A stretch of DNA of 63,027 nucleotides, counting the filler, from Globobulimina sp. (lineage: Eukaryota): assembly GCA_003354225.1 (NCBI GenBank). It is 46 parts of 46 records of this genome, joined end to end, with 100 filler letters (N's around TTAATTAATTAA, not from the genome) between each part and the next. Parts side by side here need not be neighbours in the genome. Positions count along the whole stretch, not along the records: positions 30,201 to 31,472 come from PIVH01019681.1; positions 31,573 to 32,844 come from PIVH01019682.1; 44 more parts are not named here. One strand, 5' to 3'. How positions within the stretch are numbered: the stretch's first letter is position 1; every line of letters starts with the position of its first letter. Position numbers and translations under genes: made by a program. This document shows, piece by piece, positions 4,197-39,584 of this stretch. Below the pieces are notes generated by a model. The model saw nothing but the letters and a program-made list of their open reading frames with translations, was not told the DNA's origin and ran no database searches.

Positions 4197-4949
4197 TTGA
4201 TGCATAATCCATCATTCATCACTTTCAGTGGATTGCTACCCGCAATATTTGGTACTCTCACAATTGTATCTTGCTATCATTTGAGTGTTAACATATATCA
4301 TCATTTCCCGCCATGGTTATGGATGCCCGTGATTTCGTTGTTAGGCTGCTTAGAACCGGAACACTCAATGTATCAAATCGGATTCACTCTCACTGCACTC
4401 TCAACATTTTTGTTTTATTTTACATTTCAAAATGGATTATTGAAAGTTTTGCCATACAATGGATCTAAAATATCAATCGATGCATTAAAATATACCATTT
4501 TATTATGTGCAATCGGTGTATTTGGACAAGGTGTAATTACATTAAATGAGGATCTGGTAAATATATTGCTGAATGAGAATGAAATCGAAAATTATAACCC
4601 ATCAAAAAAAGACATATTGCATCAATTCTGTGCATTGTTATTCTTTTTTTCAGGATTAATTCATGGAATGGTGAGTGTCTCCATCTATTTTAAATTAAAT
4701 GATGCGGAGATCTTCAAACTATTAAAGTTTTCAAGATGGTTTAAATTATTTCTATTATTTCTAAGTTTATTGCCAATCACAGCCTCGATTGTAAACCATC
4801 CCACCAATTTCAATAACAGCGGGAAAACCCATGCTATGCTAAATAAAGCCGGTGGGGCGCAGTGGAGTGTTGTTTTTACATATTTGGCATTCTTCTCCTC
4901 ATATTCATTGGATTATTATTTGATATTAAAACAAAGGAGAAAAACCTAA
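4197..4949 (+). CDS. Frag1/DRAM/Sfk1 (TMEM150-like) 6TM membrane protein
   Basis: MPVISLLGCLEPE matches the family motif PxIS..G..xPE; LHQFCALLFF; six TM segments. Confidence 0.7.
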   Translation: MMHNPSFITFSGLLPAIFGTLTIVSCYHLSVNIYHHFPPWLWMPVISLLGCLEPEHSMYQIGFTLTALSTFLFYFTFQNGLLKVLPYNGSKISIDALKYTILLCAIGVFGQGVITLNEDLVNILLNENEIENYNPSKKDILHQFCALLFFFSGLIHGMVSVSIYFKLNDAEIFKLLKFSRWFKLFLLFLSLLPITASIVNHPTNFNNSGKTHAMLNKAGGAQWSVVFTYLAFFSSYSLDYYLILKQRRKT

Positions 4950-6749: not shown

Positions 6750-6867
6750 AGGGGGGATGTTCTGANNNNNNNNNNNNNNNNNNNNNNNNNNNNNNNNNNN
6801 NNNNNNNNNTTAATTAATTAANNNNNNNNNNNNNNNNNNNNNNNNNNNNNNNNNNNNNNNNNNNNCG

Positions 6868-8372: not shown

Positions 8373-9422
8373 AATTAATTAAATTAAAAATTGAGATTGA
8401 GATTGAGATTGAGATTAATTGTTAATTGATTTAATTTTTGATTGGTTTTATTGTTTTTTGTGTTGTGATGCTTTATTTTTTATAATTTCGGACTTTTTAA
8501 CCCAAATCTATTGGCAGCACCATGTTTTATTACAAAAAATGAATGTCATTCTCTCTGTTCCTCATTGCAAACAATAAAAAATAATTTAATGCGTAAATAT
8601 GAAAAATCAATTAAAAAATTCGCTTGCCAGAATCATATATCTCAATCATCATAAAATCACCATTTATCTATCCATGCTTTATAATATTATCTATCCTTTA
8701 TCTCATCTATAATCCTTTGTAACTGCTCCTTTATATCGATATCGATATCGATATCGATATCATATCATTGATTGACTCAATAAGTCACAGCTTTTGCTTT
8801 GATTGGAAATGGTCTCTGTGGAAGCTAAGATGTGCATAGTTGGATAATACGATGGGATGCGATCGATATCAACAATAATCTCAATGTGTCGCTTTTTAAT
8901 TTCTTTGCAAATGTCAGAATATAATTAAATATTATATTTCCATCGTTAATAAATTATATATTACGTCTCTCTGTCTCACTCCAGACCGGCAGATCAGATC
9001 AGATCAGATCAGATGCATGGCTTTGTATCATGACAATACAATATAAGATTTACAATCTTCTCAAACACTTGACACCAAAAAACGACATTTAAGATGCTTA
9101 ATTCTAGCTAGCGAGCTAGCTCTGCTCTGAAAACATTCATGTTTGACTCAAAGGATGTTTATCATTCCGAAACTGAACCTGTCAATTAATTGCAAAATCC
9201 AAATATATGCTCCAAGCAGTTCAATGGAATCAATGGTTGATATATAATATCACATAGTTATTTTAATTAAATTAATTACAATCTGTTCCGCTAAATTCCA
9301 AATGATCTGAATATTATATATTATATATTAACACGTATACATTTTTCATTCAAAGTGATAGCTAACCAAAAAAGAACGTACGCAGTATTTATATGTTTAA
9401 TTTCTAATTGTTTGCAATTGGT

Positions 9423-9438
9423 GGTGTTGAAAAACACC
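9423..9438 (-). promoter_or_regulatory. Histone mRNA 3' stem-loop (GGUGUU-UUUC-AACACC)
   Basis: 6-bp stem with 4-nt UUUC loop, followed by ACCAA, 45 nt after the H4 stop. Confidence 0.9.
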
Positions 9439-9483
9439 TGGTAAAAAATAAAAGATTAATGTATGAAATATATAAATGTAGTT

Positions 9484-9511
9484 TTAGTTGAATCCATAGA
9501 TGGTTCTTCCT
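9484..9511 (-). CDS. H4: Histone H4, C-terminal fragment (GRTIYGFN*)
   Basis: Same peptide and near-identical 3'UTR as the full H4 at 31755-32063. Confidence 0.9.
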
Positions 9512-9611
9512 NNNNNNNNNNNNNNNNNNNNNNNNNNNNNNNNNNNNNNNNNNNNTTAATTAATTAANNNNNNNNNNNNNNNNNNNNNNNNNNNNNNNNN
9601 NNNNNNNNNNN

Positions 9612-11137: not shown

Positions 11138-12257
11138 ATGCCGAAATTATTGCAGTATTTATCAACAAATGTATCGATAGCATTAAGTTCAGATAATTTA
11201 TATAAACTATCGGTGAATTGTTTAAATATGATATTTATAAATGGATTTGGTATTCGTTATAGTTTAGTTCATGATGATAATATGTTGGGTTTAGCATTAT
11301 TTTATAATTCATCCTTTTTTAATCATTCATGTTCAGCAAATGCATTTTATTATTTTTTAAATGGGAATCAAATTATAATTCGAACATTACGCGAAATAAA
11401 AAAGAATGAAGCCATCACCATCTCAATTGTTAATGATTTAGAATCTCATTCGAAACAACAACGACAAAGTATGTTATTGCAAAATTTTGGTTTTAATTGT
11501 TTATGTTTGAGATGTACGAATGAAGAATATATAAATAATAATCAATTATTAGCGCAAAGAATGAATGAAACAGATTGTGTCTTTAACCATAAACAACATA
11601 TAAACTTATTAAATTACGCCAGAACAAATTGGAGGAAATCAACAAATCAAAGTATAGCATGGAAATTTTATGCCAAATTATTTTCGCAATATGAATATTA
11701 TTATCATCCATTTGATCCAGATATGTTGTCTTTGTTACAAGAGATTGCACAAAAAGCATTTATGAGCGCCGATTATAACATTGGTTATGATGCAAGTGAG
11801 TTAGGCAGACAATTTTGTACAAGATTAACATCGTCAAATATTGTCGAACAATGCCATTTGACTGAATTTAAATTCATTTTCTTATCTTTTTTGAATTATT
11901 TACATTTGGTAAGAGATAAATATCCAAATCAGCAAATTGAAGAAATTATCAATCCCAAAACGGATATAATTCATATAAATGATATGAAACAAGCGCATAA
12001 TGATAAGGTGGCTGATAATGATGTTATAGTGATGAATGATGATGTTTTGCTCAAAATGTTTGAGGATGAATGCAAGGTTGAAACAGTGGGGAATGTAAAA
12101 AAGAAGGATCGGAATAAAAACAATAGGAAACATAATAAAAACAAAAAAAATAAAAAGGGAAATAAAAATAAACGGAAACACAGTAAAGGCAATAAAAATA
12201 AAAAGAAAGGCAATGAAAAAATTTCAAAAGATAAGAATGTGAAAGTGTACAGATTTG
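11138..12257 (+). CDS. SMYD-type SET domain protein (partial)
   Basis: ALFYNSSFFNHSCSAN, IRTLREIKKNEAITIS and post-SET FGFNCLCLRC. Confidence 0.85.
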
Positions 12258-16476: not shown

Positions 16477-16953
16477 TCGCCAAATATTTCTGGTCACCCG
16501 AAAAATTTTAGCGATTTTTTACAGAGACTTACGTAAACAAATTTCGCTGAAATTTCGCGCTATTATACCTATTCTACGAACGTACCAACATGCGAAATTT
16601 GAGCCAAATCGGTTCACTCAAGTCTGAGTAAAAAATTCCTACATATTTCTGGTCACCCGAAAATTACTAGCGATTTTTTAGTCAGATTTGCTAGAACCGA
16701 TTTGGCTGAACTTTTTCTTTGCTATACTTGTTGTACGAGCGTACCAACATACGAAATTTCACCCAAATCGGTTCACGCAAATTTGACTGAAAAATCGCCA
16801 AATATTACTGCTCACCCGAAAAATGTTAGCCATTTTTACTCAGACTTGCGCGAACCGATTTTCCAGAAATTTTCCTCTACTACACCTGTTGTACGAGAGT
16901 ACCAACAAGCGAAATTTCAGCCAAATCGGTTCACGCAAATCTAAGTAAAAAAT
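16477..16953. repeat. Three tandem 159-bp units, each with an internal inverted repeat
   Basis: ATATT(T/A)CTG(G/C)TCACCCGAAAA at 16484, 16643 and 16802. Arms GAACCGATTT / AAATCGGTTC are clearest in units 2-3. Confidence 0.9.
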
Positions 16954-31234: not shown

Positions 31235-31697
31235 ATTCTCGATTAATTGAATATAGTCAGTTTAAAACCACTGTAGCTAACCCAAAAATCTTGCAAACAT
31301 TCAAGCTGCTAATTTTCGACTGAACCAGCAAATATGCTGAAGTGTCTCCATTAGCGAATAACGGCGGTAATATTTTCTTCCTTGTAGTTAGGAATTAGGA
31401 TACATGGCCTTTTGTGTATACCAAAATTTGCAATAACATACAAAGAGATCATGCAAAATATGGATCATTATTNNNNNNNNNNNNNNNNNNNNNNNNNNNN
31501 NNNNNNNNNNNNNNNNTTAATTAATTAANNNNNNNNNNNNNNNNNNNNNNNNNNNNNNNNNNNNNNNNNNNNCTCTGTTAAATATTGATTGTAGACTGAA
31601 CAAATCAACTGAAATTTATACAAAACGTACAGGTTAATTTAATTCAGATTTAATTTCAGATTTAATTTTATGTTATAATGGTCGTGTCGCAATTGGT

Positions 31698-31713
31698 GGT
31701 GTTGAAAAACACC
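31698..31713 (-). promoter_or_regulatory. Histone mRNA 3' stem-loop after H4
   Basis: GGTGTT-TTTC-AACACC-ACCAA, 41 nt after the stop. Confidence 0.9.
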
Positions 31714-31754
31714 TGGTAAAAAATAAAAGATTAATGTATGAAACAAATAAAAGA

Positions 31755-32063
31755 TTAGTTAAATCCATAGATGGTTCTTCCTTGTCTTTTTAAAGCGTAT
31801 ACAACATCCAAAGCAGTGACAGTTTTCCTTTTCGAATATTCCGTATAAGTGACTGCATCCTTAACAACATTTTCTAAGAATGTCTTAATTACAGATCGCG
31901 ATTCATCATAAATCTGCCCAGAGATTCTTTTTACTCCACCTCTTCTGGCTAAACGTCTAATGGCCGGTTTTGTAATTCCAGCAATATTTCCTTTTCCTCC
32001 TTTTCTGAAACGTTTGGCACCGCCTTTTCCTAAACCTTTACCTCCTTTTCCACGACCGGACAT
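31755..32063 (-). CDS. H4: Histone H4 (divergent), intronless
   Basis: [51 protein letters not shown]. Confidence 0.99.
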
Positions 32064-32542
32064 TCTGAATAATAAATTAGTTAATAAAAGAAAAATGGAA
32101 TATATTAATATTAATAATAAATTAAAGAGAATGAGATTGATGTTGTTTTGGTGAAGAAATCAAATGGATGGTTTTGGTGAATATTATATCATAATTGCCA
32201 ACATGCTGGCCATCAACAATTAGAAACAGAATTTTATCTTATTGGTCGCCGCTCTCTCTGTAACATATATCCTATATGGCATTGCATAAAACTGCCATTA
32301 GCAATTCGTATTGATATTGATATTGTGAGTTATGTTGTGTTGTGTTGTGATTCTTGAAACTGTGAAATTTGTTAAATCCAGCCATGCTGCATCATGCTTC
32401 ATTTATAAATGTTAAGATTTAGGAATCACGAAAACTGTGAGCTTTTTGCATCAACTAACTCGGAACATCATTCGCTTCGGACAACTAGTTTAATATTAAT
32501 ATATTGTGTACATAGCGATTGCAACAGATCAGTAAAATTGGT

Positions 32543-32558
32543 GGTGTTGAAAAACACC
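32543..32558 (-). promoter_or_regulatory. Histone mRNA 3' stem-loop after H2A
   Basis: Identical to the H4 elements; 46 nt after the H2A stop. Confidence 0.9.
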
Positions 32559-32604
32559 TGGTAAAAAATAAAATAATTATATACAAAAAAATGCTGATTT
32601 TAGT

Positions 32605-32844
32605 TTAGTTTTTCTTTTTTCCTTTTTTTTGTGGCAATAATGCGGCATTGATATTTGGTAAGACGCCGCCTGAGGCAATAATGGCATTTCCAAAGAATTG
32701 ATTTAATTCATCGTCATTACGCACCGCCAACTGGATATGTCTCGGGATGATCCGCAATTTCTTATTATCTTTGGCAGCGTTGCCGGCCAACTCCAATACT
32801 TCGGCCACAATATATTCTAAAACAGCTGCCATATAAACTGGTGC
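32605..32844 (-). CDS. H2A: Histone H2A, 3' part
   Basis: [49 protein letters not shown]. Confidence 0.98.
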
Positions 32845-33258
32845 NNNNNNNNNNNNNNNNNNNNNNNNNNNNNNNNNNNNNNNNNNNNTTAATTAATTAA
32901 NNNNNNNNNNNNNNNNNNNNNNNNNNNNNNNNNNNNNNNNNNNNTTTGTATGATGAATACGGTGTTAATAATGAAGTGATTGTGTGTGGGACGAAAGGAA
33001 TGACAGTTACAACATTAAGTGATGCGGAGAGAATTATATTAATTGTAATATGGTTAATTGTGTTGGTATTTGTATGTTTTTGTGTTGTAAACAGAACACG
33101 AATAAAAAAATGGTATACTAAAGGAAAGATTGGTTATACTGAATTTAGCAACGAGCAACGTCCACACAATAAAACTGATAATTCAGCTAGACTCTAATTA
33201 GCAAAAATATATTATTAAAGGTCTAGTAAATAAATAAAAGGTTTTTTGCTTCTGACAA

Positions 33259-39520: not shown

Positions 39521-39584
39521 GTGATGATAGCTTAAGGAAAGCATCTATTTAAAGAAGATTTGGGTTCAAATCCCAATCATCACA
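39521..39584 (+). ncRNA. tRNA-like element (64 nt) with truncated anticodon arm
   Basis: Acceptor stem GTGATGA/TCATCAC plus A; D-stem GCTT/AAGC; T-arm TTGGG-TTCAAAT-CCCAA; followed by TTTT. Confidence 0.75.

Follow-up and report, generated by a model that had tools for sequence, protein, structure and literature searches.

A histone-type 3' stem-loop behind the H2A and H4 genes of a foraminifer-like protist and occurrence of the same hairpin in viruses and a transposon

Metazoan histone stem-loops (Rfam RF00032, Histone3), which function together with SLBP, the U7 snRNP/HDE system and CPSF73, have a 6-bp stem with GG...CC outer pairs, a 4-nt loop with U at loop positions 1-3 and an ACC(A)A 3' flank, and lie a few tens of nucleotides past the stop codons of core histone genes. 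All of these features of sequence and position are found in the element described here. Among metazoans, C. elegans is not known to use U7/HDE at its histone 3' ends. Histone stem-loops of protists were reportedly described by Lopez and Samuelsson in 2008, as cited in a preprint taken up below. C. elegans (where SLBP is CDL-1) also has the hairpin, and its histone genes carry a conserved poly(A) signal beside it. The C. elegans ends were mapped experimentally, and according to PMC1924863 most histone mRNAs end 3-6 nt past the hairpin without poly(A), whereas the element described here is known from its sequence alone.

The element belongs to a class already reported, that of the Rhizaria histone stem-loops located near stop codons, and is ordinary for a rhizarian. 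The report is an October 2026 preprint that surveys 310 protozoan species (10.64898/2026.10.14.759114), and the available part of its text states that in Rhizaria all core histones have stem-loops near their stops and that SLBP is present. The G-C second stem pair and the U at loop position 3 are given there as conserved SLBP-recognition features, the distance from stop codon to conserved element is put at 25-60 nt (legend to its Fig. 1) and models trained on animals are said to have limited sensitivity outside animals. Like the rhizarian stem-loops of that text, the present element is close to core histone stops and keeps the diagnostic positions. The word foraminifera is absent from the main text of the preprint, and a literature search on foraminiferal histone stem-loops gave, among the matches listed, none that mentions foraminifera.

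The DNA analysed, here called the window, is a stretch of 63,027 nucleotides with a GC content of about 31%, in which stop codons are standard and open frames are long. It is a pseudomolecule built from short contigs with N...TTAATTAATTAA...N linkers between them, and thus gene order across the joints is no proof of linkage. Among the block-bearing genes, adjacency is established only for those encoding H4a and H2A (one contig, 31574-32845). The histone genes, the 38-nt blocks behind them and examples of the linker joints are as follows.

31755-32063, minus strand: histone H4 gene (H4a), complete, 102 aa; stop codon at 31755-31757
31691-31728, minus strand: 38-nt block behind H4a; hairpin core at 31698-31713; Histone3 score 27.1 bits
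32605-32845, minus strand: 3' part of a histone H2A gene; stop codon at 32605-32607; cut by an N gap at 32846
32536-32573, minus strand: 38-nt block behind H2A; hairpin core at 32543-32558; Histone3 score 27.7 bits
9484-9512, minus strand: last 8 codons (GRTIYGFN) and stop of a second H4 gene (H4b); stop codon at 9484-9486; cut by an N gap at 9513
9416-9453, minus strand: 38-nt block behind H4b; hairpin core at 9423-9438; Histone3 score 29.7 bits
8239-8372, minus strand: 5' part of a linker histone H1 gene; 3' end lost in a contig gap
8140-8238, 9513-9631, 31474-31573 and 32846-32945: linker joints (examples)

Comparison of the H4a protein with named H4 proteins gave identities of 79-84%. The best matches among named H4 proteins come from foraminifera, with 98% identity to that of Nonionella stella, 88% to that of Bolivina argentea and 88% (over 75% of the query) to that of Reticulomyxa filosa, and the Nonionella match makes the window foraminifer-like (Rhizaria). 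The H2A fragment matches Histone_H2A_C with 61.4 bits. The H1 fragment shares 66% identity over 38 aa with the H1 encoded by a metagenome contig described below (L080), and because its 3' end is lost in a gap, the window H1 gene is uninformative on the stem-loop. Elsewhere in the window a 64-nt tRNA-like sequence (39521-39584, plus strand) scores 53.5 bits with the Rfam tRNA model, but ARAGORN calls no tRNA anywhere in the window. At 16600-16860 both strands give overlapping matches, below threshold, to precursor families of plant miRNAs, and these most likely reflect a long AT-rich inverted repeat.

Read in the minus-strand sense, the block is UUUUAUUUUUUACCA-GGUGUU-UUUC-AACACC-ACCAAUU, which consists of a U-rich flank, ACCA, a 6-bp stem with a UUUC loop, and ACCAAUU. 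Window search and alignment confirmed that the three copies are identical, as the sequence-only reading had claimed. That reading had also placed the hairpin 41-46 nt past the stops of H2A and two H4 genes, and the spacers counted from the stop to the first stem base are 46 nt for H2A, 41 nt for H4a and 45 nt for H4b. These values fall inside the 25-60 nt range given in the figure legend of the preprint. The 16-nt hairpin core has three matches in the window when up to two mismatches are allowed, and all three are exact. The number expected is 0.09 (mean), and three matches were reached in none of 100 shuffles. Within the window the block is present at all three of the histone 3' ends that remain, and none of its three copies lies away from a histone gene. 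When the H2A and H4 3' UTRs are compared, identity begins and ends exactly at the edges of the 38-nt block, which speaks for selection on the block itself rather than for simple gene conversion of a longer tract. The H4a and H4b UTRs are alike for about 15 nt further upstream of the block.

The GGUGUU-UUUC-AACACC core forms six Watson-Crick pairs and a 4-nt loop, and the hairpin is found within the minimum free energy fold in all three sequence contexts, with an energy of -6.7 kcal/mol. Relative to shuffled sequences the folding z-scores are -0.68, -1.13 and -2.90, and equally good folds were obtained in 45, 26 and 2 of 200 shuffles, respectively. The folding energy is thus unremarkable in two of the three contexts and thermodynamics alone would not single the hairpin out. 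The G-C second stem pair and the U at loop position 3 are present in all three copies and in all 12 rows of alignment A1, of which nine metagenome rows have both positions fixed by the search pattern.

An Rfam scan of the window in gathering mode did not report Histone3 and gave only a tRNA-like match. In E-value mode, Histone3 matches all three sites over the full 46 positions of the model with scores of 29.7, 27.7 and 27.1 bits (whole-window E-values of 2e-4 to 2e-3) and is the sole cis-regulatory Rfam family that matches all three. In this check, which had been proposed with the sequence-only reading, each site is recognized at 27-30 bits but all three copies score under the Histone3 gathering cut-off of 34 bits. 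The Histone3 model was built mostly on animal sequences. The window element differs from the metazoan consensus in the middle of the stem, which is UGUU rather than CUCU, and in the 5' flank, which is UACCA rather than cCAAA and has A only at positions -1 and -4. The 3' flank, ACCAA, fits the Rfam consensus ACcaA. The G noted earlier at stem position 4 is correct; the Rfam consensus has U at this position, whereas G is found in 12 of 12 aligned sequences. A further difference from the metazoan stem-loop is an extra U-rich 5' extension of 10 nt that is identical between the gene classes of the window.

Relatives of the block were sought in metagenome contigs using a pattern that prescribed both flanks, the loop and the two outer stem pairs but left the four inner pairs free. 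At least 119 loci were found, and all four free pairs were formed in 13 of the 119 listed, compared with a chance expectation of about 2.4, that is (6/16)^4 x 119. Six of the 13 fully paired loci sit 24-64 nt behind histone genes: three behind H1 genes (L037, L060 and L080), one behind an H2B gene (L044) and two behind H2A genes (L086 and L091). Note that the rows of alignment A1 were picked for paired stems, and hence their complete pairing is a result of selection and the independent evidence consists only of the enrichment and the histone context. Two other fully paired loci, L081 and L082, were set aside as chance occurrences since they are GC-rich and have no nearby histone gene.

The histone-linked relatives carry the core behind H1, H2A and H2B genes in contigs that range from 24 to 58% GC. 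The entire 38-nt block is unchanged in L080. Compensatory double changes have occurred at two different pairs, giving GGUGUC/GACACC in L037 and GGCGUU/AACGCC in L091, and the lineage consensus is ACCA-GGYGUY-UUUC-RACRCC-ACCAA. The metagenome relatives match Histone3 at 24.6-31.9 bits, and a copy behind a non-histone gene (L111, below) scores above the cut-off. These data agree with the original assignment of the block as an SLBP-type histone 3' stem-loop, which is supported by the restriction of the block to sites behind histone genes in the window, its architecture, the specific though sub-threshold Histone3 matches and the conservation, with compensatory changes, behind H1, H2A and H2B genes. 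The claim that the U-rich 5' flank is conserved was upheld in part. It holds between H2A and H4 in the window, and the flank is present in the AT-rich relatives L002, L044, L080, L086 and L111, but it is absent from the GC-richer relatives L037, L060 and L091 that have the same core. The flank is therefore no general requirement of the stem-loop type and, judged from these sequences, is a feature of the AT-rich members of the lineage.

Contigs of two other organisms (coded) also cover the block. In the covering contig of organism X7 the differences among those listed fall at 31690-31692 and 31732, outside 31693-31731, and the X7 contig that covers H4 coding sequence differs at 34 of 286 positions. 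Taken from the differences listed (there are at most three more in the covering contig), this gives only a hint that the block may be conserved in X7. Regions lacking cover in X5-X7 and the high summed depths at the block in X1 were left out of the evidence. In L091 a second, degenerate stem-loop lies 37 nt after the first. The H2A gene of this contig is located between two 5S rRNA genes on the minus strand (1-96 and 1846-1965; 70.7 and 81.1 bits), an arrangement suggestive of a repeat unit that combines histone and 5S genes.

Non-histone genes of CRESS-DNA viruses, of larger DNA viruses and of a mariner transposon also end with this hairpin. In IMG/VR the bare 16-mer is found in 59 contigs, most of which were discarded as chance matches having unrelated flanks and high GC. 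The contigs in which the hairpin has the ACC 3' flank do not look like chance. The stem-loops for which positions are needed here are as follows.

L170, 472-514 and 2156-2200, plus strand: stem-loops behind Rep and Cap, which are same-direction genes
L126, 650-695, minus strand: stem-loop 31 nt past the Rep gene
L121, 6842, 7975, 9024, 10171 and 11167, plus strand: five copies of the stem-loop
L111, 3496-3520, plus strand: stem-loop 22 nt past a non-histone ORF; Histone3 score 34.8 bits
L056, 6356-6380, plus strand: stem-loop 67 nt past a non-histone ORF; same sequence as L002
L066, 1183-1260, plus strand: mariner (Mos1-type) transposase ORF, 30 nt, then three tandem stem-loop-like units

L170 is a CRESS-DNA virus with a Viral_Rep domain (2.6e-22), a helicase domain and an origin hairpin having CAGTATTAC in its loop, and since the contig is terminally redundant it is circular. 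Its Rep stop codon is followed after 9 nt by GGUGUU-UUUA-AACACC-ACCA (Histone3 25.5 bits) and its Cap stop codon after 13 nt by GGUGUU-UUUC-AACACC-ACCAA (31.0 bits). The stem-loop is also found 22 nt past the Rep gene of L145 and, in L180, 13 nt past an ORF that is putatively capsid-like as judged from its sequence. L111 and the pair L056/L002 are virus-like contigs that carry genes with Bro-N domains. The stem of the mariner locus L066 contains a G-U wobble.

The larger virus L121 is a 33,105-nt record, scored as complete by CheckV, that encodes a YqaJ domain and gives a weak VLTF3-like match. A Capsid_NCLDV search of this record was uninformative, since the control genomes likewise gave no match. 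All five stem-loops are on the plus strand and no copy is present on the minus strand of the whole record. Four of the five follow ORFs of at least 50 aa, and the copy at 6842 follows a short reading frame (read by eye). One or two other hairpins precede four of the five copies; the copy at 11167 has none. L144 also has five copies, all on the minus strand, four of them behind listed ORFs and one more at oriented position 4322. Between L121 and L144, orthologous proteins have identities of just 47% and 32%, yet the hairpin core is unchanged, which is hard to explain without selection. In both of these viruses (about 30 kb each) a five-gene module ends in hairpin arrays in which the histone-type stem-loop comes last. 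By our own reading, a CCAAT/TATA-like sequence is common to the upstream regions of three L121 genes and is a candidate promoter. The same hairpin is also seen shortly past ORFs in contigs of giant-virus metagenome-assembled genomes (L120, L172, L179/L183 and L181/L182), some of which have a terminator-like U-rich run on the 3' side instead, and these copies are no more than possible relatives of the histone signal.

According to the available part of the preprint (10.64898/2026.10.14.759114), no SLBP or other processing factors were found in giant viruses, and viral stem-loops go unmentioned in that part. A literature search for viruses with histone stem-loops gave nothing on point among the matches listed. 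We suggest tentatively, and with somewhat more doubt than conviction, that in this protist lineage the stem-loop serves as a portable 3'-end cassette and has been captured by viruses and transposons. The viral and transposon copies might work through SLBP, a putative role that we regard as a real possibility rather than as the expected outcome.

The presence of the hairpin in a mariner element and in viral contigs is what would be seen if the block were no SLBP signal at all but either a generic terminator hairpin or a repeat that a mobile element, gene conversion or assembly collapse had spread. One X1 contig joins two copies across 818 bases, which is repeat-like behaviour in assembly graphs. 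Such an origin is nevertheless very improbable given that the block is always in the sense orientation at its fixed range of distances past a histone stop and that H2A/H4 identity stops at the block edges, where the other parts of the UTRs differ. A repeat or terminator also sits badly with a core that stands behind H1, H2A and H2B genes in contigs of such different GC content and has undergone compensatory changes, and with the specific match of every copy to the Histone3 model.

Two other explanations accept the hairpin as an SLBP site and differ in how the mRNA end is made. In the first, cleavage would still depend on a U7-like snRNP, whose pairing site would be so short or divergent that three sequences do not reveal it. 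LSM10/LSM11 homologues are reported in the preprint to be widespread outside animals, and only three downstream regions are available here. U7 snRNA gave no match at E <= 1 within the 63-kb window, a result that is uninformative on the whole genome. However, the lineages named for these homologues in the available text of the preprint (10.64898/2026.10.14.759114) are algae, plants, stramenopiles, holozoans and amoebozoans, and Rhizaria are outside them. The sequence-only reading saw no shared purine-rich downstream element, which would set the window apart from the metazoan U7/HDE system, and this was confirmed: the 80-nt regions downstream of the three copies have no 7- or 8-mer in common, and the best 10-nt purine windows hold only 7, 6 and 8 purines and differ in both sequence and position. 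This absence is compatible with the possibly U7-independent 3' end formation put forward in the sequence-only reading. Nor was any common downstream element seen across the six histone-linked relatives. We therefore consider U7-like guidance unlikely. In the second explanation, which parallels a proposal made for early-diverging fungi, the hairpin would serve SLBP-dependent translation or stability and most mRNA molecules would have their ends at a poly(A) site further downstream. The three downstream regions have a single hexamer in common, AUUAAA (+26, +43 and +16 after ACCAA), and it invites comparison with the C. elegans genes in which a poly(A) signal accompanies the hairpin (PMC1924863) and with the intermediates having both stem-loop and poly(A) that are considered in the discussion of the preprint, as far as that text is available. 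The C. elegans signal is conserved, whereas AUUAAA in the window lacks statistical support, and as a back-up poly(A) signal it was rejected because at least one hexamer is shared in 1038 of 5000 shuffles and because A[AU]UAAA occurs within 90 nt in just one of the six histone-linked relatives. The eight other window ORFs with clean 3' flanks are too few to define the poly(A) signal of the organism. Moreover, most C. elegans histone mRNAs themselves end close to the hairpin without poly(A), and a mixed mode of this kind seems to us distinctly unlikely.

We conclude that the block is probably a 3' processing and regulatory signal of replication-type histone mRNAs in a foraminifer-like protist. 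Transcription would pass through the block and the RNA would fold into the 6-bp/4-nt hairpin, which an SLBP orthologue is expected to recognize via the second stem pair (G-C), the uridines of the loop and the flanking sequences. By analogy with the described systems, cleavage of the pre-mRNA would then fall a few nucleotides beyond the 3' side of the stem, inside ACCAA or directly after it, such that the mRNA would end in the hairpin instead of a poly(A) tail, and this end would govern translation and S-phase-coupled decay. As the three genes share no downstream element, the cleavage factor more likely acts without guidance of the metazoan U7/HDE type.

For the window itself little changes, in that it adds a clean foraminifer-type example to the surveyed rhizarian class and documents a lineage consensus with two compensatory changes. 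As the three genes of the window lack a common U7-type element, foraminifera are a reasonable place to study histone pre-mRNA cleavage without U7. The viral and transposon copies are the part most worth following. If these are functional SLBP sites, the parasites would couple their expression to the S-phase histone pathway of the host and dispense with poly(A). If a host histone 3' end has indeed been copied by viruses and a transposon, this would be a new form of molecular mimicry and the hairpin would be of practical use as a marker by which uncultured viruses could be assigned to rhizarian hosts.
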